DNA from: Deltaproteobacteria bacterium
GTDB taxonomy: Bacteria > Desulfobacterota > GWC2-55-46 > DRQE01
Assembly: GCA_016219105.1 (NCBI GenBank)
Contig: JACRCI010000115.1
Location: 1 to 55,128, forward strand
Direction of reading: 5' to 3'
DNA: 55,128 bases
The first letter of the stretch is position 1. Each line of letters begins with the position of its first letter. The notes beneath the pieces are model-generated. The model saw nothing but the letters and a program-made list of their open reading frames with translations. It ran no database searches and was not told the DNA's origin. Both the position numbers and the translations under genes were made by a program. Positions 22,858-55,128 of this stretch are shown one piece after another.

Positions 22858-22992
22858 CCGGCGATTACAGGCGCTGTTGATAGCCAGGCGCCCCCGCGGC
22901 ACATGGATAAAGACGCTTACCGCTGCTTCCTTCCGGACCTGACGGGGTTCGCATCCCTCCATTGCGCGGGACCCGGCTATCAACATCGCCGG
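22858..22992 (-). ncRNA. ffs: signal recognition particle RNA (4.5S/ffs-type)
   Basis: The minus strand contains GTCAGGTCCGGAAGGAAGCAGC (conserved domain IV motif). It is flanked by a long closing helix (GTTGATAGCC...GGCTATCAAC and CCGGCGAT...ATCGCCGG) and sits in the classic position upstream of dnaX. The ends are approximate. Confidence 0.8.
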
Positions 22993-23020
22993 CAATCCCT
23001 GCATGCCTTACAGTAAAATC

Positions 23021-23112
23021 TGGCGGAGAGAGAGGGATTCGAACCCTCGGTGCACTGTTACATGCACATATGCTTTCCAGGCATACCCCTTCGGCCACTC
23101 GGGCATCTCTCC
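23021..23112 (-). tRNA. tRNA-Ser (anticodon GGA)
   Basis: GGAGAGATGCCCGAGTGG...CTGGAAA anticodon loop, long variable arm, GGTTCGAATCC T-loop and encoded CCA. Confidence 0.9.
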
Positions 23113-23123
23113 GTGAAAAAACC

Positions 23124-23196
23124 GTGAATAGAGAATGGTGAATCGAGAATAGAAAAATGTAAAGACATTTTTCACAATTCACCATTCACTATTCAC
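23124..23196 (-). repeat. AT-rich ~35-bp imperfect hairpin built from four copies of a 14-mer (GTGAATNGNGAATN), followed by T6
   Basis: Left arm GTGAATAGAGAATGGTGAATCGAGAA pairs with right arm TTCACAATTCACCATTCACTATTCAC. There is an inner AAATGT/ACATTT stem. On the minus strand it is followed by GGTTTTTTCAC and then the tRNA 5' end. Confidence 0.7.
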
Positions 23197-23202
23197 TGTA
23201 TC

Positions 23203-23298
<96 letters not shown>

Positions 23299-42746: not shown

Positions 42747-44201
42747 TCAGTCCTTGACGTCTTTCTTGCTTATCTTGAGATCCCTTATCTTTTTCCTGAG
42801 CGTATTGCGGTTTATGCCGAGGAGTTCAGAGGCCTTTATCTGGTTGAAGCGCGTCTTTTTGAGGACGAGCTTTATAAGCGGCCTTTCCATGAACGGCATC
42901 ACGGAATCATAAAGCTCCTGCCTCCCGCCCCCCCTTCCCGATGATGAAGGCCCGGACGAAAGCGCCTTTTCCAAAAACGGCTCGAGCCTTGCCGATATCA
43001 TATCCTCGATTGATTCTTTCCTGTAGTGCCTCTGCGGGAGCGCGATGTCCGCCGGCGTCAACACGGTATTGGGAGAAAGAAGCACGCCCCTCCTGAGGAC
43101 GTTTTCAAGCTCCCTTACGTTGCCGGGCCACGGGTAGGTCATCAGCTCCGTCGCGGCGTCTTTTGAAAGCCTCCGTGTCTCGATGCCCATCTCGCGCGCG
43201 AACTTATCGAAGAAATGCTCGGCGAGAAGCGGGATGTCGTCTTTCCTTTCCCTCAGAGGCGGGATCGTGACCGTCACGACGTTGAGCCTGTAATAGAGGT
43301 CTTCCCTGAACCTTTTTTCCTCGACCGCCTTTTCGAGGTCCTGGTTCGTGGCGGCGATTATCCGCACGTCAACCCTGACGGGCTCCTTGCCGCCGACCCT
43401 GTAAAATTCCCTCTCCTGCACCGCCCTCAGGAGTTTCGCCTGAAGCCCCGCGGCCATGTCCCCTATCTCGTCGAGGAAAAGCGTTCCGCCGCCGGCCAGC
43501 TCGAACTTGCCCCTGCCGGTTTCTGTCGCGCCGGTAAAGGCGCCTTTTTCGTGGCCGAAGAGTTCGCTCTCCATGAGTTCCCCCGGCACGGCCGCGGAAT
43601 TCACCGCGATAAACGGCCCCTCGCATCTGAGGCTGTTGGCGTGTATGAGCCTCGCCACAAGCTCCTTGCCCGTGCCGCTTTCGCCCTGCACAAGGACCGT
43701 CGCGTCCTTCGGGGCCACCTTGCCCACGGTCTTGAATATCCTCTCGACCACCTTTGTCCTGCCGACGAACACGGTCTCGCCGGCAAGCTTTTCCTTGAGC
43801 CTCTCCTTCAGGACCGAGACCTCGTTTCTCAGATGGAAGTCCTCCACGGCCCGTGCCGTTATCACGTCGAGCTCGTCGAGGTCAATGGGCTTTGTCACGT
43901 AGTCGAACGCCCCGCGTTTCATGGCCTCGATGGCGTTTTTCATGGTGCCCTCGGCGGTCATTATGATGACCGCGGTCTTAAACCCCTCCCATTTCTTCGC
44001 GTCCTTGAGTATGGTAAGCCCGTCCTTGCCCGGCATGTTTATGTCAACGAGGGCGAGCGGCACCGAGGCCTCCCTGAGGGCTTTTTCGGCGCTCGCGCCG
44101 TCGCGCGCCACGATGACCTCGAAGCCCTTTTCCCTGAAGAACTTATCGAGCACCCACGCGATGCCCGCGTCATCGTCCGCTATGAGGACCTTTTCCTTCA
44201 C
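42747..44201 (-). CDS. ntrC: sigma-54-dependent response regulator (NtrC family)
   Basis: Receiver domain (LIADDD..D..MPG), AAA+ domain with GESGTGKE and GAFTGA motifs, and a C-terminal Fis-type HTH. Confidence 0.9.
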   Translation of the reverse strand: MKEKVLIADDDAGIAWVLDKFFREKGFEVIVARDGASAEKALREASVPLALVDINMPGKDGLTILKDAKKWEGFKTAVIIMTAEGTMKNAIEAMKRGAFDYVTKPIDLDELDVITARAVEDFHLRNEVSVLKERLKEKLAGETVFVGRTKVVERIFKTVGKVAPKDATVLVQGESGTGKELVARLIHANSLRCEGPFIAVNSAAVPGELMESELFGHEKGAFTGATETGRGKFELAGGGTLFLDEIGDMAAGLQAKLLRAVQEREFYRVGGKEPVRVDVRIIAATNQDLEKAVEEKRFREDLYYRLNVVTVTIPPLRERKDDIPLLAEHFFDKFAREMGIETRRLSKDAATELMTYPWPGNVRELENVLRRGVLLSPNTVLTPADIALPQRHYRKESIEDMISARLEPFLEKALSSGPSSSGRGGGRQELYDSVMPFMERPLIKLVLKKTRFNQIKASELLGINRNTLRKKIRDLKISKKDVKD

Positions 44202-44202
44202 G

Positions 44203-45297
44203 CTAAAGCGCCTCCACCGGCAGAAGCACGCGCACGCGGGTCTTTTCCCCGGGGACCGAATCTATCTTCATGAACCCCGCGTGCTCCCTTACTATCCCGT
44301 ATGAAATCGAAAGACCCAGCCCGCTCCCGCCGCGTTTCGTCGTGAAAAACGGCGTGAATATCCTTTCCATGTTCTCCTCGGGTATGCCGCGGCCCGTGTC
44401 CATAATCTCTATCTCCGCGAACTTGGCCTCCCTCGAACCCTTCTCCTTCAGATGGAACTCGGTCACCATGCGGGTGGTCACCCTTACCTCGCCCCTGCCT
44501 TTTTCCACGGCCTCGCGCGCGTTCTTTATGAGGTTCATGAACACCTGCGTAAGGCGGTTCTCGTCGCCGTTTATCATCGGCAGGCTCGGGTCGTAGGCCT
44601 TGGCCACCCCCGGCCCTCCCGCGCCTTCTAAAAGCAATATCACCCTGTCGAGCACCCTGTGGATGTTGAGGTTTCTTTTTTTGAGCCTCATCGCGCCGGC
44701 GAAATCGAGCATCTCCCTGACCGTGTCGTTCAGCCGGTCGGCCTCTCTTATGATCACCTCCGCGTATTCCCTCGCGTCCTTGTCCTTGAGTTTCCTTGAG
44801 AGCAGCTGCGCCGCGCCCTTTATCCCGCCGAGCGGATTTTTCACCTCGTGCGCCAGATTGGCCGCGAACGTGCCGATGAGGGCGAGCCTCTCTTTCCTGA
44901 GCGCCTCGCTCTCTATGGATTTTATTCCGGAGAGGTCTTTTATGAGACAGGCAACCCCGCAGGATTTCCCGTCAGGGCCGCTCACCCCCACCGTGGATAT
45001 CCCGACCGGAAACGGCGGAGAGAACCTGCGGTGGAGCCTGCCCTCGCAGTCGGAAAAGAGCTTGCCCTCGTCGAGGGTCATGCGGACCGCGTCCACGAGC
45101 CAGCGGTCCCTTGAAAACACCGCGTCAAGCCCTTTTCCGAGCGCCTGCCCCCTCGAAAGCTCGGTCATCTTCTCGGCGGACTGGTTGAAGACCGTAACCT
45201 CCATAAAGGGGCTTACGCAGAGCACTCCCTCGAAGAGGCTTTCGATTATGTTCTCGTAAAGGAGGTTTCCTTCTCTGTTTTTTTCTATGGGCCGCAT
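44203..45297 (-). CDS. ntrB: PAS sensor histidine kinase (NtrB-like)
   Basis: PAS-like N-terminus, H-box FAANLAHEVKNPL and N/G boxes (NLIKNA, DTGRGI, GGSGLGL). It lies adjacent to ntrC. Confidence 0.85.
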   Translation of the reverse strand: MRPIEKNREGNLLYENIIESLFEGVLCVSPFMEVTVFNQSAEKMTELSRGQALGKGLDAVFSRDRWLVDAVRMTLDEGKLFSDCEGRLHRRFSPPFPVGISTVGVSGPDGKSCGVACLIKDLSGIKSIESEALRKERLALIGTFAANLAHEVKNPLGGIKGAAQLLSRKLKDKDAREYAEVIIREADRLNDTVREMLDFAGAMRLKKRNLNIHRVLDRVILLLEGAGGPGVAKAYDPSLPMINGDENRLTQVFMNLIKNAREAVEKGRGEVRVTTRMVTEFHLKEKGSREAKFAEIEIMDTGRGIPEENMERIFTPFFTTKRGGSGLGLSISYGIVREHAGFMKIDSVPGEKTRVRVLLPVEAL

Positions 45298-45416
45298 ACC
45301 TGCCTAAATATTAGGCATGATAGCAGACCTTGGCCGGGAAGGCAATAGGATTTGGAAGGAATTTCGCGGCGAGGATGAAGTCAAACCCGCCTTAGCCGCC
45401 CCGCGGGGTTCCCCAT

Positions 45417-48066: not shown

Positions 48067-49599
48067 CTATTTAGAAATGACCCGCGGATTAGGGTTGGGA
48101 CGGACAATCGAACCGGAAACTTCTATCCGCCCGAATTTTTCCTTTATGTCCTCGGCGGTCTTTTTGGCGGCCAGCTGCACGGCCCTGCCGGCGGTGGTCA
48201 ACGCCCTCGTATACTCGACGAAGTATCCGTTCCTCTTAAACCACGCCTTCGTCAGGCTGCGGCCATACGCCTTTATCGCCACGTTGAATATGTCCAGGCG
48301 CGCCGCCCTCTTCGCTATCTGCCAGATGGAGTAGAATTTCTTGGTGGCCTTCATGGTCTCGGACTGGAGTTCGTAGTAGCTCATCTTTTTGGGCTCGAAT
48401 ACGACGTGGTGCGCGTCGTAAAGGCTCCAGTCGCGCGACACTATGCGGCTGTTTTTCTCGAAATCATTGTAGAGCTTCGTGCCGGGCAGCGGCGTAAGTA
48501 TCAGGAACTGAATGGATTCGAGGTCCATCTTTTTCGCAAACCTGAGCGTCTCATGGATGGTGTCGGTTGTATCCTCGTCCGAGCCGAATACGAACATCCC
48601 GTGTATGCGTATGCCGTTTTCGTGCAGCCTCTTTATGCAGACCTCGATGTCCTCGACGGATTGCTTTTTGTTGTACGCCTTGAGGGTTTCCGGGTTTATG
48701 GATTCAAACCCTATGTAAACCGTATGGCAGCCGGACCTCTTCATCAGGTCCAGAAGCTCAGGGTCTTTCGCCACCTCCACCCTGACCTGCGCCGTCCAGT
48801 TGGGGGTGAGCCTGCGCTCTATCATCATGGTAAGGAGTTCCTTGGTCCTTTTCCTGTCGGCTATGAAGTTGTCGTCGTAGAAAAAGACCCATTTGGCGCC
48901 GGCGCCCATGTATGACTCAAGCTCCGCTATGGTCTTATCGTTGCTCCGGAACCTGTATTTGTGGCCGAACATCTGCGTCACGGAACAGAAACTGCAGTCA
49001 TAGGGGCATCCGCGCGAGGTCATTATCGGCGTTATCGGGACGTTTTTTATCCAATCCTTGCCGAGACCCTGCACTATGGAAAAATCCGGACTGGGGAGCG
49101 CGTTTACGTCCTTGCAGAAAGAAACGATCCTGTTGTGCGCAACCGTTCCGTCTTTTCCCCTGTACGAAAGACCCGGAATACCGTCGAAACCCGAGCCTTG
49201 CTCCAGCGCCTTTATAAAATCCACTATGTGGTCGTCGGCCTCACCCCTCATCACGTAGTCGCAGTAATCGAGCGCCTCGTCCACCATATAGGTAACGTGA
49301 GGGCCGCCCATGAAAACGGGTATCCCGGCCTTTCTGAGGTGTTTAGCGATTTCATAGGAGCGTGGAGACGTTGAGGTGATGGTTGAAATGCCCACGGCGT
49401 CGGCCGAGAGGACGTCCTCGATGTCCATTTCGCTTATGTCCTCGACGTAGCTTTTAACGTCGTAGCCGTGCTGTTTGAGGATTGTGCCGAGCAGGACGGT
49501 CCCAAGCCTGGGTATGGGAGACCTGGTGAAGACATGGATGTCCGGCGGGCGCGACTCTATAAAGACGATTTTTTTCATTTTTTGCGCCACCGTTACCAC
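48067..49599 (-). CDS. B12-binding domain radical SAM protein
   Basis: N-terminal cobalamin-binding-like domain followed by SRGCPYDCSFCS (CxxxCxxC). The start is ambiguous: GTG 49599 with a GAGGGG RBS, or ATG 49578. Confidence 0.85.
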   Translation of the reverse strand: MVTVAQKMKKIVFIESRPPDIHVFTRSPIPRLGTVLLGTILKQHGYDVKSYVEDISEMDIEDVLSADAVGISTITSTSPRSYEIAKHLRKAGIPVFMGGPHVTYMVDEALDYCDYVMRGEADDHIVDFIKALEQGSGFDGIPGLSYRGKDGTVAHNRIVSFCKDVNALPSPDFSIVQGLGKDWIKNVPITPIMTSRGCPYDCSFCSVTQMFGHKYRFRSNDKTIAELESYMGAGAKWVFFYDDNFIADRKRTKELLTMMIERRLTPNWTAQVRVEVAKDPELLDLMKRSGCHTVYIGFESINPETLKAYNKKQSVEDIEVCIKRLHENGIRIHGMFVFGSDEDTTDTIHETLRFAKKMDLESIQFLILTPLPGTKLYNDFEKNSRIVSRDWSLYDAHHVVFEPKKMSYYELQSETMKATKKFYSIWQIAKRAARLDIFNVAIKAYGRSLTKAWFKRNGYFVEYTRALTTAGRAVQLAAKKTAEDIKEKFGRIEVSGSIVRPNPNPRVISK

Positions 49600-49765
49600 C
49601 TTTTTCCCCTCTAAATTTTCGGAATTAATGATGCATTATGATAACCGCTCGATGGCATTATGTCAAGAAAGAATAAAAAATGAAACAATTTGTCATAAAC
49701 CTTCCGGCCTGATATATTATTATGGCCCGTCATCTACAATACGCCGTCTGAGCCCAGGAAAGACA

Positions 49766-50461
49766 ATGGCTGGAAAAATCCCCGCTCTGTATCCCATAAT
49801 AGACGCGTCCCTGGTAAAGCGCTCCACCCCCGGTGCGCTTGAGATGGCCGCGAGGGACGTCCTTGCAGGCCTCGCCGGCCAACCCGCCGGCATAATACAG
49901 CTCAGGGCAAAGGAAACGGGTTCAGCCGAGTTCCTTGGTCTGGCAAGGATTTTGAGGAGAATCTGCCGGAACGCGACATTCATAGTGAACGACAGGGTGG
50001 ACGTGGCGCTCCTCGCCGGCGCGGACGGGGTGCACCTCGGCCAGGAGGACATACCCGCTCAGGCGGCGAGGAGACTCCTCGGCAGGGGAAAAATAATCGG
50101 GCTTTCCACCCATAACATAGAGGAGGCCCGTGAGGCCGAAAAACTCGCCCGCAAAGGCTTGGTTGACTACATATCGTTCGGCCCGGTGTTCCGCACCGGG
50201 ACAAAAAAAGACGCCCGGCCGCCTGTCGGGATAGCCGGGCTTAAAAAGGCGCGTAAAATCGTAACCTTCCCGCTCGTAGCTATAGGCGGCATAAACCGGG
50301 ATAACATGCCGTGGGCAATCGGGGCAGGGGCTGACTCGGTCGCCATTATATCCGCGATACTTGGCGCAAAGGATATCCGCTCGGAGACAAAGACCCTTGT
50401 CGAAAGATTGTCGGGATTATCCCCTCACCCCGTGGGCGCCGCGTCGCGCCCTTCCCGGTAA
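49766..50461 (+). CDS. thiE: thiamine-phosphate synthase
   Basis: LYPIID..., IQLRAKE, NDRVDVAL..GADGVHLGQED and GGI motifs. ATG 49766 follows AGGAAAG; the longer ORF-track N-terminus is antisense to the radical SAM gene. Confidence 0.9.
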   Translation: MAGKIPALYPIIDASLVKRSTPGALEMAARDVLAGLAGQPAGIIQLRAKETGSAEFLGLARILRRICRNATFIVNDRVDVALLAGADGVHLGQEDIPAQAARRLLGRGKIIGLSTHNIEEAREAEKLARKGLVDYISFGPVFRTGTKKDARPPVGIAGLKKARKIVTFPLVAIGGINRDNMPWAIGAGADSVAIISAILGAKDIRSETKTLVERLSGLSPHPVGAASRPSR

Positions 50462-50541: not shown

Positions 50542-52119
50542 TTATAAACCCGAGGTCTTGTGTATGGTGAAGTCCGGATAGGCCGTGACCGCCACCTCGT
50601 GCTCGTCGAGGCCGTCTATCTCCATCTCCGGCTGAACCCTGAGCGGTATTATCTTGTCGAGTATCTTGAAAAATACGTACATGACGACGAAGACGAATAC
50701 GAGGTTGGTTATGACCCCGGCAATCTGCGCGGCAAACTGGGACGCATCGCCGTAAAATAACCCACTTACGGCTCCCGCGACCCCGTTAAGCCCGTCGCCG
50801 TACGTGCCGTCGGCGAAAAGCCCCAAAGACAGAAGCCCCCACGCCCCGTTCACCCCGTGCACGGATATCGCGCCGACCGGGTCGTCAACCTTGAGCGTGC
50901 GCTCCACGAAGAACACGCTCAGGCAGAGGATCACCCCGGCTATGCCGCCGATAATGACCGCGGACACGGAATTCACGAAGGCGCACGGCGCCGTTATGGC
51001 CACAAGCCCGGCCAGTAATCCGTTGGCGGCCATCGAGATATCGGGCTTGCCGTAGAATATCCACATGTAAAACATAGCGAAAAAGGCGCCGGCCGCCGAT
51101 GCGAGCATGGTGTTCGTCGCCACAACGCCTATCCTCAAGTCCCCGCCCGCAAGTGACGAGCCCGCGTTAAAACCGAACCAGCCGAAGGCGAGGATGAAAC
51201 AGCCGGTTAGCGCCATTGGTATATGATGGCCCGGAATGGCGCGGGGTTTACCGTCCTTTCCGTATTTGCCTATCCTGGGGCCGAGGATAATCGCGCCCGC
51301 CAGCGCGGCCACCCCTCCGGTCATGTGAACGACCGAGGAGCCCGCGAAATCAACCGTGCCGTGGCCGAGGCTGAAGTTCTTTCCGAGTTGAGAGAGCCAC
51401 CCCCCTCCCCACACCCAGTTGGCGTAAAGCGGGTACGTGAACATCGAGATGAAAAACGCATAGACGACGAAAGACTTGAACGTCCATCTCTCGGCCATGG
51501 ACCCGGTCGGTATCGTGGCGGTCGTGTCCATGAACACCATCTGGAAGAGGAAGACCGTGAAAATAATGGCGTCGTATGTCATGCCGGAGAGGAAAAACCC
51601 CTTTGTCCCGAAAAGCCCGAAGTCCCTGCCGAAGAGGTTTATTACGAATTCCCCGTTGAGCGCCCCCCCTCCTCCGAGGGTCGCAACGCCGCCGACCCCT
51701 CCCATCTGAAGGGCGAAACCGCATATCCAGTAGCCGAGCATGCCTATGCCGTAGACCATGAAGTTCATGGCCATGGTATGTCCCGCGTTTTTGGCTCGCG
51801 TAAAGCCAGTTTCCGCCAGCGCGAACCCCGCCTGCATGAACATTACCAGAAAGCCGCAAACGAGCGTCCATACCACGTTTATGGCGATCCTGTTGTGCCC
51901 CACAACGTCCGCGAGCTTCAGCGCGAGCGGCTCCTGCGGCCCCAGGTTCTTGAGATCGTCGGCTGACGGGGCGTTTGCCGACGCACCCACAACGTCCGCA
52001 GCCCCGCCCGTCCTGACGCCTGACGGGTCGTTTGCGGCGTCATCGGCCAGGGCCGCAACCGGCATCACAAGGCATGCCAGTAATAACATCGTTGTCAAAA
52101 CCCTTTTAAGCATCTCCAT
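50542..52119 (-). CDS. amtB: ammonium transporter
   Basis: About 11 TM helices with Amt signature motifs (FAGSSVVHMTGG, GFNAGS, HGVNGAWG). The N-terminal signal peptide is followed by an Ala/Asp-rich extension. Confidence 0.93.
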   Translation of the reverse strand: MEMLKRVLTTMLLLACLVMPVAALADDAANDPSGVRTGGAADVVGASANAPSADDLKNLGPQEPLALKLADVVGHNRIAINVVWTLVCGFLVMFMQAGFALAETGFTRAKNAGHTMAMNFMVYGIGMLGYWICGFALQMGGVGGVATLGGGGALNGEFVINLFGRDFGLFGTKGFFLSGMTYDAIIFTVFLFQMVFMDTTATIPTGSMAERWTFKSFVVYAFFISMFTYPLYANWVWGGGWLSQLGKNFSLGHGTVDFAGSSVVHMTGGVAALAGAIILGPRIGKYGKDGKPRAIPGHHIPMALTGCFILAFGWFGFNAGSSLAGGDLRIGVVATNTMLASAAGAFFAMFYMWIFYGKPDISMAANGLLAGLVAITAPCAFVNSVSAVIIGGIAGVILCLSVFFVERTLKVDDPVGAISVHGVNGAWGLLSLGLFADGTYGDGLNGVAGAVSGLFYGDASQFAAQIAGVITNLVFVFVVMYVFFKILDKIIPLRVQPEMEIDGLDEHEVAVTAYPDFTIHKTSGL

Positions 52120-52159
52120 CCTCCGTAAAAAAGCATTTTGCCGACGCGCCCGGTTTTCC

Positions 52160-53375
<1,216 letters not shown>

Positions 53376-53551
53376 CTCGCTTCCTCCTTCTCTTTTTATT
53401 TAAAACAAAAAACGCATGCTCTCCCTTAAATCCCGGTGCCGGTGAAACGGCGCCTTTGCCGTAATAAAAAAACCCGGGCCGCGTCTTTGCAACCCTTTTT
53501 CAAGTCCGACGACTATCGGCCTGAACAAATTACGGGGTTCCCCTCACCCTG

Positions 53552-54265
53552 CTAAAGCCTCAGAAACCTTGAAAAAACGCTCCCGCCGTAGCGCTGAAGC
53601 GTCCCGATGCCCGCTCCGGTTTCTTTTTTGACGGCCGCCGGGTTGACCGCGCCTTTAAGCCCCTTGATCTCATCATCGTTCACCGTAAGCCACTCGCCTA
53701 TCATTTTCTCCGTGACCTCGAGATGGAACTGGAACGCGTAAGCCCTTTTACCGACGCGGAAAAGCTGGTTGGGGTAAATATCGCTCGATGCGAGGAGCGC
53801 CGCCCCGGGCGGCAGATCGAACGTGTCGCCGTGCCACTGGAAAACCATGAATTCCGAAGGCAGCCCTAAAAAGAGCCTGTCCCTCGCCCCCTCGGCCGTC
53901 AACCTGAGGGTGTACCAGCCTATCTCCTTTTTCCCGCCGGGGTATACCCGCGCGCCCGCGGCCCTCGCCATAAGCTGCGAGCCGAGGCACACGCCGAGCG
54001 TTGGAACGCCGCTCTTTAACGCCGACCCTATAAGGCGAAGCTCGTCTTTCAAAAACGGGTATTTATCGTCCTCATACGCCCCCATCGGCCCGCCGAGCAC
54101 TATGAGGATGGAGTTCTCCGCGACATCGCGCGGCACCGCCTCCCCCCTGTATACCCTCACTCTCCGGACAATAAACCCATTCCTTTCGAGGAAGTCCCCG
54201 AGTATGCCCGGCCCCTCGTGCGCGACATGCTGGATTATGACCGCGTCTCTCTTTTCATCTCTCAT
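53552..54265 (-). CDS. type 1 glutamine amidotransferase (GMP synthase-like GATase1 domain protein)
   Basis: LIVLGGPM and GVCLGSQL (nucleophile Cys) motifs and a FQFHLE His-Glu motif. Confidence 0.8.
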   Translation of the reverse strand: MRDEKRDAVIIQHVAHEGPGILGDFLERNGFIVRRVRVYRGEAVPRDVAENSILIVLGGPMGAYEDDKYPFLKDELRLIGSALKSGVPTLGVCLGSQLMARAAGARVYPGGKKEIGWYTLRLTAEGARDRLFLGLPSEFMVFQWHGDTFDLPPGAALLASSDIYPNQLFRVGKRAYAFQFHLEVTEKMIGEWLTVNDDEIKGLKGAVNPAAVKKETGAGIGTLQRYGGSVFSRFLRL

Positions 54266-54846
54266 TACGATTGTCCGCCCTCTTTCAGCGAAGAAACTAT
54301 TATCTCCGAGACCTCTTTCATCGTCATGCGCCTGTCCATGCTTATCTTCCGTATCCTCGAATATGCCTCGGCCTCGGTTATCCTGTCTTTTTCCATCAAA
54401 AGCCCCTTGGCCTTCTCAACGAACTTCCTGGTCTCGATGGTGTTTTTGAGGTCAACGTTTTCCTTCCTTAGCTTCAGATACTCACCGTGCCTCGATATGG
54501 CAAGCTCTATGGCCGCGAAAAGCTCCTCCTCCCTTACGGGCTTTACGAGGTATGCCATGACCCCGGCCTCGGCCGCTCTCCTTACGGTGTCCTCGTCTTC
54601 CCTCCCGGTGATGAGCACCACGGGGACTGACGAGTGCCTGTTTATCTCGGTTGCCGCCTCAATCCCGTCTTTGCCCGGCATCTTAATGTCCATTATCACG
54701 ACGTCAGGGTTGTACGTTGAGCATATACCGAGCGCTTCGGAGCCGTCGGCCCCCTCGGATGCGACCGTGTAGCCCCGTTCATTAAGGAACCCTCTAAGGA
54801 CCTGCCTCGCGGAAGGGTCGTCGTCTATTATCGCCACCTTCCTCAT
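54265..54846 (-). CDS. ANTAR-domain response regulator (AmiR/NasR-type antiterminator)
   Basis: Receiver domain (KVAIIDDD...DVVIMDIKMPG) plus a C-terminal ANTAR helix pattern (KAKGLLMEK...EAEAYSRIRKISMD). Start placed at ATG 54846. Confidence 0.85.
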   Translation of the reverse strand: MRKVAIIDDDPSARQVLRGFLNERGYTVASEGADGSEALGICSTYNPDVVIMDIKMPGKDGIEAATEINRHSSVPVVLITGREDEDTVRRAAEAGVMAYLVKPVREEELFAAIELAISRHGEYLKLRKENVDLKNTIETRKFVEKAKGLLMEKDRITEAEAYSRIRKISMDRRMTMKEVSEIIVSSLKEGGQS

Positions 54847-54859
54847 GCGAGAAGATAAT

Positions 54860-54875
54860 AGCAAAAGCCGTGCCA
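54860..54875 (-). promoter_or_regulatory. sigma-54 (-24/-12) promoter
   Basis: Minus strand reads TGGCAC-GGCTT-TTGCT, an exact match to the TGGCAC-N5-TTGCW consensus. The -12 GC lies about 15 nt upstream of ATG 54846. Confidence 0.7.
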
Positions 54876-55000
54876 GCCCTTAAAATCGGGGTTTTTAACG
54901 GTATGAAGGGAAAAAATGATTTTTTTTAAGGCAGGGGTGAGTAAATTTTGTGCAATATGAAAGGGAAGGGATGCCGGGATTTTGCCCTTCTAAGGAAGGT

Positions 55001-55128
55001 CTGATTAATTCCCAGTCCCGTCATTGCGAGCGCAGCGAAGCAATCTCGTCCTATAGGCAAATCAGTGAGTTACGAGATTGCTTCGCCGCAAAAACGCGGC
55101 TCGCAATGACAAAAAGAGAATTAATCAG
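55001..55128. repeat. 128-bp nested palindromic (MITE/REP-like) element ending exactly at the window end
   Basis: Three nested inverted repeats: CTGATTAATTC/GAATTAATCAG (termini), GTCATTGCGAGC/GCTCGCAATGAC and GAAGCAATCTCGT/ACGAGATTGCTTC. Confidence 0.7.

Follow-up and report, generated by a model that had tools for sequence, protein, structure and literature searches.

A conserved sigma-54 promoter element close to the start codon of an ANTAR regulator gene in a putative Gnf-like nitrogen circuit

The contig JACRCI010000115.1 from a Deltaproteobacteria bacterium (assembly GCA_016219105.1) was analysed over its entire length, and these 55,128 nucleotides (nt) are called the window below. Towards its upper end, the minus strand carries five nitrogen-related genes in a row, encoding a response regulator with receiver and ANTAR domains that resembles GnfR of Geobacter, a class-I glutamine amidotransferase, an outer-membrane protein, the P-II protein GlnK and the ammonium transporter AmtB. 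The first of these genes is preceded by an exact sigma-54 (RpoN) promoter sequence, which lies at so short a distance from the start codon that the regulator mRNA would be nearly leaderless, and which is retained at this place in related loci. The DNA and its relatives establish which sequence elements are present, how these are conserved and spaced, what domains the proteins contain and how the genes are ordered. The features of the gene row are as follows.

54860 to 54875, minus strand: sigma-54 -24/-12 promoter element TGGCACGGCTTTTGCT, an exact TGGCAC-N5-TTGCW, kept in 14 of 14 related loci
54847 to 54850, minus strand: predicted transcription start zone (standard numbering from the -12 C), giving a 5' leader of about 1-4 nt
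54265 to 54846, minus strand: receiver and ANTAR response regulator, 193 amino acids (aa), GnfR-like (Pfam)
53552 to 54265, minus strand: stand-alone class-I glutamine amidotransferase, 237 aa (Pfam GATase, 76 bits)
50542 to 53375, minus strand: likely target genes for the outer-membrane protein, glnK and amtB (Pfam, relatives, gene order)
52545 to 53375, minus strand: 276-aa outer-membrane (porin-like) protein (match to the L161 and L165 products)
52160 to 52498, minus strand: glnK (Pfam P-II)
50542 to 52119, minus strand: amtB (Pfam Ammonium_transp)

The regulator matches Response_reg (PF00072, 108 bits) and ANTAR (PF03861, 68 bits) in Pfam. Its residues D9, D53, T80 and K102 are invariant across the homologues, and the closest solved structures, 1s8n and 6wsh, both belong to ANTAR regulators. 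The stop codon of the regulator gene overlaps the start codon of the amidotransferase gene as TAATG at 54265, in agreement with a preliminary description of this DNA, which had proposed an ANTAR regulator followed by a class-I amidotransferase with overlapping stop and start.

The same description had claimed an exact TGGCAC-N5-TTGCW at 54875-54860, and such an element is indeed present there on the minus strand (reading of the promoter region, cTGGCACGGCTTTTGCTattatcttctcgcATGAGGAAGGTG, also ...gggcTGGCACGGCTTTTGCTattatcttctcgcATGAGGAAGGTGGCGATAATAGACGACGAC). Its GG (54874-54873) and GC (54862-54861) are exactly 10 nt apart, the geometry of a sigma-54 promoter, and the 16-mer with the preceding C (cTGGCACGGCTTTTGCT) agrees with the extended consensus YTGGCACGrNNNTTGCW wherever this names a base. 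No other exact TGGCAC-N5-TTGCW exists on either strand of the window. Shuffling of the window gave an expectation of 0.03, with one exact match in 3 of 100 shuffled windows. Relaxed matches with up to two mismatches are no commoner than chance (10 in the window versus 15.5 expected), so the window is not generally rich in sigma-54-like sequences. A terminator scan flagged a terminator-like hairpin over the promoter (54882-54862); this candidate was rejected, as relatives do not conserve it.

Fourteen loci encoding close relatives of the regulator (53-65% identity) were collected from five species-representative genomes, two metagenome contigs and seven exact-protein look-ups. The genome scan returned its five close loci among Actinobacteria PdtaR-type matches, and the metagenome scan, performed with an N-terminal profile, gave only two useful loci; generic receiver/ANTAR matches dominated both. 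In 14 of 14 loci TGGCA[CT]-N5-TTGC is found on the coding strand 5' of the orthologous receiver-ANTAR gene. Loci with the full gene cluster possess exactly two exact sites per 12 kb, the first 5' of the regulator gene and the second within the porin leader, and the two are on the gene strand, co-oriented with the nitrogen genes; no exact site was found on the opposite strand of these loci (~120 kb in total). A chance match or a non-functional sigma-54-like sequence, for which the exact occurrence in 3 of 100 window shuffles would leave some room, is effectively refuted by conservation of the element, whose position and orientation stay the same throughout the 14 orthologous loci and at least 21 homologue clusters besides these; its probability is negligible. 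The element is very probably a functional sigma-54 promoter, and from its occurrence this regulator family would be under sigma-54 control in many lineages.

The start codon of the regulator gene has been annotated differently. The database entry of the contig (P0001) is a 190-aa product from GTG 54837 that starts with MAIIDDD, and an exact-protein look-up of the 193-aa product found no match because this entry begins at the GTG. Translation from the GTG, with the purine-rich run AGGAAGG as Shine-Dalgarno sequence and a 12-nt leader, has this entry in its favour. However, AGGAAGG abuts the GTG with a spacing of 0-2 nt, which is no usable distance, and the codon aligned to the GTG is ATA (Ile) in most relatives, whereas the ATG three codons upstream is invariant. 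Furthermore, M[RK]x[IV]A[IV][IV]DD is the very N-terminus in 82 of 120 homologue clusters. The start at GTG is therefore very improbable, and the homologous N-termini argue that ATG 54846 is the true start, as had been proposed. Gene callers mis-start this regulator family: besides the GTG entry of the window, 21 of the 120 clusters (among P0038-P0117) translate the promoter.

The C of the -12 GC (54861) lies 15 nt from the A of ATG 54846, which by convention places +1 at 54849 and leaves the 3-nt leader CGC; this numbering, in which the C of the promoter GC is -12, is reportedly that of Barrios et al. (1999). The start site near 54849, about 3 nt before the ATG, had been predicted from the letters, and conventional geometry gives the same position. 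The lack of a Shine-Dalgarno sequence is confirmed as well, as no GGAG, GAGG or AGGA is found within 20 nt before ATG 54846. This arrangement is shared by the close-promoter relatives. In 12 of the 14 loci the -12 C is 14-17 nt from the ATG, corresponding to predicted leaders of 2-5 nt, and none of these 12 loci has a Shine-Dalgarno-like sequence; ATG is the start codon in every one of them, with no GGAG, GAGG or AGGA in the -20 to -4 region. The two exceptions, L164 and L167, have the promoter 74 and 57 nt from the ATG and carry AAGGAG at normal distance. Judged by these loci, a promoter-adjacent ATG and a Shine-Dalgarno sequence appear to be mutually exclusive, and since the latter occurs only in the relatives with a distant promoter, the close arrangement seems to replace it rather than to be neutral.

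The spacing is retained while the sequence drifts. The distance from TGG to ATG is 28, 29, 30 or 31 nt depending on the locus, and because these values do not differ by multiples of three, the conservation does not come from protein coding. In the 21 clusters with spurious N-terminal extensions, the extension is the promoter element translated in frame (MALNLLSTIG- from aTGGCACttaatTTGCtt, -WHRFC-, and MLFYYG- from the TTG of TTGC), and all of them place the element 29-30 nt before the real ATG. Among the 11 loci whose close start could be assigned cleanly, 8 have a purine at the conventional +1. In L004, a more distant relative (contig CBDUXY010000002.1, upstream of 5995), the predicted leader of 14 nt begins with AGGAGG, i.e. 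the predicted sigma-54 start falls exactly on the Shine-Dalgarno sequence. Four Geobacteraceae loci have TGGCACGCCTCATGC and predicted leaders of 17-19 nt, with GGAGG in three of them. These promoters seem to give minimal leaders quite generally.

Leaderless mRNAs have been defined by a 5' untranslated region of no more than 5 nt (PMC12754779), and that the translated regulator mRNA has such a leader is, from the spacing and its conservation, moderately probable. Several points weigh against it. The +1 at 54849 is an extrapolation from the conventional distance between -12 and +1. The AUG region is base-paired in the minimum-free-energy fold of the predicted 5' end, which is no less structured than its shuffles (z = -0.03). 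In E. coli, expression reportedly benefits strongly when the start codon is near the 5' end, and even a few additional 5' nucleotides are reported to reduce it for leaderless mRNAs; the 5' terminus might have to coincide with the AUG, so a leader of 2-4 nt might translate poorly. Finally, glgA lies upstream on the same strand in most relatives, ending 60-115 nt before, so that read-through transcripts are possible. Accordingly, the sigma-54 promoter may be real and the regulator may still be translated mainly from longer transcripts that arise by read-through or from another promoter; initiation would then be independent of a Shine-Dalgarno sequence, e.g. through ribosomal protein S1 on the pyrimidine/AU-rich stretch before the ATG, and the closeness of promoter and ATG would merely reflect a compact intergenic region. 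Besides the position of glgA, the U/pyrimidine-rich character of the stretch from -12 to the ATG fits this explanation, as does the disadvantage of a 2-4 nt leader compared to a 5'-terminal AUG that is reported for E. coli. Nevertheless, Shine-Dalgarno sequences are found in exactly those relatives whose promoter is further off, other genes of the operon have strong ones (e.g. AGAAGGAGGAAG before the porin gene), and the spacing stays at 14-17 nt despite sequence drift; we consider translation from longer transcripts unlikely.

The spacer between the amidotransferase gene and the gene for the 276-aa protein (179 nt) contains a putative ANTAR target site composed of the following elements.

53476 to 53495, minus strand: ANTAR target hairpin P1, GGGTTGC-AAAGAC-GCGGCCC, hexaloop with A at position 1 and G at position 4
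53466 to 53475, minus strand: GGG, then T7, directly after P1 (terminator scan)
53447 to 53462, minus strand: ANTAR target hairpin P2, ACGGC-AAAGGC-GCCGT, containing GGCAAAGGCGCC, the GnfR recognition sequence
53435 to 53454, minus strand: alternative hairpin GGCGCCG-TTTCAC-CGGCACC, overlapping the 3' half of P2, with one mismatch and no U-tract

The two loops, AAAGAC in P1 and AAAGGC in P2 (53495-53447), form the dual hexaloop of ANTAR targets, and both hairpins are retained in the minimum-free-energy fold. A search of the leaders of nitrogen genes for this motif had been recommended, and the site between the amidotransferase and porin-glnK-amtB genes is its outcome. Rfam gave no match in or near the region, either at the gathering threshold or at E ≤ 1. 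The GnfR recognition motif reads acGGCAAAGGCGCC in the window and CAAGGCAAAGGCGCC in relatives. The P2 sequence GGCAAnGGCGCC recurs one to four times per relative locus, before porin, amt, glnK and nirB-like genes, where it is followed by GGCGCCTTTT terminators. Over the window and relatives together, P2 is followed by GGCGCC and a T-run (GGCGCCTTTT; the 5' arm of the terminator overlaps P2) at 15 of 25 sites, and a P1 hairpin with compensatory stem changes lies 5' of 18 of the 25 P2 motifs; as these P1 instances were selected for pairing, their 100% pairing is circular, whereas the variety of their stems is not. L161-L167, L002 and L003 each contain a second exact sigma-54 promoter and two to four GGCAAnGGCGCC attenuators per locus. 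From this recurrence, the relatives appear to carry a multi-attenuator nitrogen regulon.

The overlap of an ANTAR hairpin with a terminator, which had been expected for the leaders of nitrogen genes, is clear in the relatives; in the window, however, the competing hairpin is mismatched and lacks a U-run. At its position the relatives have AAGGCGCC...GGCGCCTTTTT, and the alternative hairpin after P2 looks like a degenerate terminator. The GGG and T7 after P1 are found in this window only and are absent from the closest relative, L001. P1 together with T7 resembles an intrinsic terminator, and binding of the regulator to P1 would stabilise such a terminator and not oppose it.

As to the genes behind this site, the neighbours had been described as porin-glnK-amtB. 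P-II and the ammonium transporter are confirmed by Pfam, but the 276-aa protein itself has no Pfam match. It is 57-60% identical to the product encoded at the same position in L161 and L165 (also without Pfam match) and has weaker matches in L166 and L167; tblastn found no match in L162-L164, where the gene at the matching position encodes a porin-type protein (Pfam BBP2). The longest open reading frame for glnK (52160-52564, 134 aa) overlaps the end of the porin gene; as the P-II domain begins at residue 23, ATG 52498 is the likely glnK start. In AmtB (525 aa), the transporter domain is preceded by an N-terminal extension of ~80 aa, and this extension is longer than in most relatives.

All scanned relatives except L001 and L005 (L081 and L082 were unscanned) have a sigma-54 promoter of their own in the porin leader, TTGGCAC-N5-GTTGCA. 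No internal sigma-54 promoter is present in the amidotransferase-porin spacer of the window and of L001. The best candidate in the spacer of the window, cGGCACcgggaTTTA, was rejected, for it has no GC and lies downstream of P2. The internal promoter has apparently been lost in the window, which appears to be a new feature. With no second promoter in the window, the genes for the outer-membrane protein, glnK and amtB are most simply seen as distal genes of the operon starting from 54875, and they would then be gated by an internal attenuator.

The amidotransferase gene directly follows the regulator gene in 15 of 15 close-clade loci and was absent from the Geobacteraceae and Binatia loci examined. 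The protein scores 235 bits against NCBIfam PRK07053 (cut-off 250), and its nearest structure is TM1158 (1o1y); the closest proteins of solved structure are themselves uncharacterised. The Cys-His-Glu motifs are retained, with the triad motifs GVCLG and FHLE read from the translation. The literature searched contained no report of an ANTAR-amidotransferase pairing, which is not proof of absence; the conserved partner is apparently new, and an uncharacterised amidotransferase is hereby flagged as the constant companion of an antiterminator.

The region upstream of the promoter and a second locus of the window contain candidate regulatory sites and the genes of a possible activator system. Because the window is the entire contig, only ~250 nt are available upstream of the promoter.

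54938 to 54954, minus strand: candidate enhancer (upstream activating sequence) dyad TGCACAA-AAT-TTACTCA, pattern TGCNNAA-N3-TTANNCA (7-N3-7)
54920 to 54936, minus strand: second conserved upstream block CCCTGCCTTAAAAAAAA (GCCTYAAAA in relatives), alignment by eye
45301 to 45317, minus strand: perfect palindrome TGCCTAA-TAT-TTAGGCA, TGCCTAATATTTAGGCA, candidate autoregulatory operator
44203 to 45297, minus strand: NtrB-like PAS histidine kinase (Pfam)
42747 to 44201, minus strand: NtrC-like sigma-54 enhancer-binding response regulator (Pfam receiver; Sigma54_activat, 237 bits; HTH_8)

The dyad begins 80 nt upstream of TGGCAC and forms part of a conserved block, TTGCACAAAATTTACTCAC then CCTGCCTTAAAAA (54955-54920). 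It is kept in most relatives, overlapping the last glgA codons in many of them, and is non-coding in the window, L001 and L081; in L002, the site at the same position is the perfect palindrome TGCCTAAAGATTAGGCA. The second block may serve as another half-site for the activator or form an A-tract bend. A sigma-54-like match at 54955-54940 (two mismatches) was rejected as a promoter, as it corresponds to the upstream dyad.

A weight matrix built from the regulator-upstream sites only found one other strong match in the window, the palindrome at 45301-45317. This palindrome sits directly after the -10 hexamer of a sigma-70-type promoter of the ntrB-like gene (TTGCCT 45345-45340, 17-nt spacer, TATCAT 45322-45317), and the same layout of promoter and palindrome is found in 4 of 4 relatives whose NtrBC-like operon was fetched (L168-L171), at any start-codon distance. 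The degenerate dyad pattern, which was partly derived from the same sequences, has only these two sites in the window compared to 0.01 expected, a count that is for this reason not independent; the regulator-upstream dyad and the palindrome agree at 10 of 14 specified positions. In enterobacteria (glnLp/glnAp2), NtrC uses an operator that covers the promoter to repress its own operon, and weaker sites upstream for activation. As the layout in the window is like this, the NtrC-like protein (42747-44201) is most likely the activator of the regulator promoter.

An NtrBC pair had been noted some 10 kb away; the pair is present, but it scores below the NCBIfam equivalog cut-offs (NtrC-like protein, best match ntrC TIGR01818, 505.6 bits, cut-off 558.6; NtrB-like kinase, 195 bits, cut-off 240). 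The promoter might thus be activated by an enhancer-binding protein encoded elsewhere, with the shared dyad belonging to another regulator. Bacteria of this type often encode many sigma-54 activators, the score of the NtrC-like protein would be in line with this, and its link to the promoter is motif similarity at the 10 of 14 positions. Yet in 5 of 5 loci the palindrome occupies -10/+1 of the ntrB-like promoter, where sites for autoregulation classically lie; the regulator-upstream site of L002 is a perfect palindrome; an NtrBC-like pair is physically linked to the cluster, being on the same contig as the regulator gene in several relatives; and in Geobacter exactly such a role is played by GnfM, the enhancer-binding response regulator of the GnfL/GnfM pair. 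Another activator has an appreciable, if small, probability, slightly above that given to the longer transcripts.

The proposed course of events, in which we infer the transcription start, leaderless translation, the dyad-binding activator and antitermination in the window, is the following. Under nitrogen limitation, an NtrC-like enhancer-binding protein, likeliest the product of 42747-44201, would become active, bind the dyad ~80 nt upstream of the promoter and activate sigma-54 RNA polymerase at the working RpoN promoter of a five-gene minus-strand nitrogen operon (regulator, amidotransferase, outer-membrane protein, glnK, amtB). Transcription would begin 1-4 nt before ATG 54846, so that translation of the regulator would proceed on a practically leaderless mRNA that lacks a Shine-Dalgarno sequence. 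The phosphorylated regulator would then bind the AxxGxx hexaloops of P1 and P2 at 53495-53447, and this binding would favour read-through into the genes for the outer-membrane protein, glnK and amtB.

Apart from the points on the leader, the following count against this scheme. The gene rpoN is absent from the window, i.e. from the whole contig, and rpoD is present; the presence of a sigma-54 activator gene implies rpoN in the genome. No cognate kinase of the regulator was found in the window, the only histidine kinase among the annotated open reading frames being the NtrB-like one; no kinase gene adjoins the regulator gene, and a MEDS-PAS hybrid kinase is encoded near the cluster in L169. The activator is assigned by motif alone, to a protein below the NtrC cut-off. 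Furthermore, the degenerate terminator after P2 and the T7 after P1 do not fit simple antitermination in the window. With these points considered, a Gnf-like circuit is likely, and the full explanation (sigma-54 promoter, near-leaderless regulator mRNA and Gnf-like circuit) is probable.

A further idea, which we regard as tentative, is that in this uncultured clade the sigma-54 promoter is fused to the start of the ANTAR regulator gene in such a way that only its transcripts carry a 5'-proximal AUG, with read-through transcripts being silent, and that the amidotransferase may be a partner through which the regulator responds to glutamine, replacing an adjacent kinase. If true, regulator translation would be firmly tied to activator-dependent initiation, and with these transcripts a class of sigma-54-dependent leaderless mRNAs would be described for the first time. 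The literature searched contained no report of a sigma-54-driven leaderless mRNA, which does not prove absence, and the conserved near-leaderless sigma-54 junction is apparently new. Sigma-54 promoters are normally discussed only as tightly gated switches, and leaderless translation is normally tied to sigma-70-type -10 elements; the layout described here, which dozens of uncultured Thermodesulfobacteriota/Deltaproteobacteria lineages have kept, would demonstrate that both mechanisms can be coupled. The system is also a simple test case for the effect of a 5' extension of 2-4 nt on leaderless initiation outside E. coli.

Several other features of the window deserve mention. A nested palindromic element at 55001-55128 has 11-nt outer inverted repeats (CTGATTAATTC/GAATTAATCAG) and the inner arms GTCATTGCGAGC and GCAGCGAAGCAATCTCGT. 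It occurs once in the window, the contig ends exactly at its outer repeat, and L081 has a similar element upstream of its regulator gene, in the same relative position. The element of the window resembles a small mobile or REP-type (repetitive extragenic palindromic) repeat, and the assembly may have been broken by it. A gene of the TMP-TENI family (thiamine-phosphate-synthase-like) is located beside amtB at 49475-50461 on the plus strand; in L169-L171 such a gene lies directly 3' of the NtrC-like gene, and it is an unexplained conserved member of the nitrogen cluster. On the minus strand, 22879-23298 contain a bacterial small signal recognition particle RNA (80 bits) followed by two tRNA-Ser genes (anticodons GGA and CGA).

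The regulator gene shares with known leaderless mRNAs an AUG start, the lack of a Shine-Dalgarno sequence and a promoter element adjoining the open reading frame. In contrast to it, the leaderless genes described so far are tied to sigma-70-type (extended) -10 promoters, and the 5' end predicted here falls 2-4 nt before the AUG, not on it.

The upstream half of the putative circuit resembles the enteric NtrB/NtrC system (glnALG) in having a sigma-54 promoter with a candidate 7-N3-7 dyad enhancer upstream, a candidate operator that, like the one at glnLp, overlaps the kinase gene's sigma-70 promoter, and PII and AmtB among the downstream genes. The enteric NtrC consensus is TGCACCA-N3-TGGTGCA, whereas the half-site here is TGCCTAA, and the proteins of the window stay below the NtrC and NtrB cut-offs of NCBIfam. 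Moreover, an RNA-level antiterminator would be inserted here between the activator and the amtB-glnK genes.

The downstream half corresponds to the ANTAR antiterminators, whose dual-hexaloop motif was defined for EutV, NasR, AmiR and NasT by Ramesh et al. 2012 (PMC3369931); the same work catalogued, in many bacteria, ANTAR sites upstream of genes for P-II, ammonium transporters and nitrite reductase. Common to both are the receiver and ANTAR architecture and two short hairpins with a hexaloop having A at position 1 and G at position 4. In those systems the second hairpin overlaps a terminator, while the terminator partner of P2 is degenerate here. Sigma-54 control and leaderless expression of the regulator are not mentioned in that work.

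The closest known system is that of Geobacter sulfurreducens, in which the kinase GnfL and the sigma-54 activator GnfM drive RpoN-dependent nitrogen promoters (Ueki & Lovley 2010, PMC2995071). The gene of the ANTAR response regulator GnfR is among the GnfM-driven genes, and the authors mapped where its transcription starts; in the phosphorylated form, GnfR binds CAGGCAANGGCGCC in the leader terminators of nifH, nifEN and a 'hypothetical-glnK-amtB' operon (PMC2995071). In Geobacter, and presumably also here, a pair of kinase and sigma-54 activator controls RpoN-type promoters including that of the ANTAR regulator, the latter acts on leader RNAs with GGCAANGGCGCC overlapping a terminator, and a target operon has the order hypothetical protein-glnK-amtB. 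The Geobacteraceae loci of our set also have a promoter, TGGCAC-N5-ATGC, before the ANTAR regulator gene, as here. The differences concern the leaders (17-19 nt with GGAGG in Geobacter-type genes, 2-5 nt without Shine-Dalgarno sequence predicted here), the regulator proteins (identity only 41-43%), the amidotransferase gene joined into the operon of this clade, and the lack of a GnfK-like kinase nearby, GnfK being the dedicated kinase of the ANTAR regulator in the Geobacter cascade. Furthermore, no nif genes are in view here, the relatives regulating amt, glnK and nirB-like genes instead, and the target genes of this window have no promoter of their own.

The preliminary description had suggested a cascade from a sigma-54 activator to an RNA antiterminator. 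The ANTAR site and the shared dyad support it; since the same logic, RNA motif and target gene order occur in Geobacter, the cascade was read correctly but had already been described there. What the present locus and its relatives would add is an extension of the GnfM-to-GnfR cascade to non-Geobacter lineages, in which it would control ammonium uptake and nitrite assimilation.

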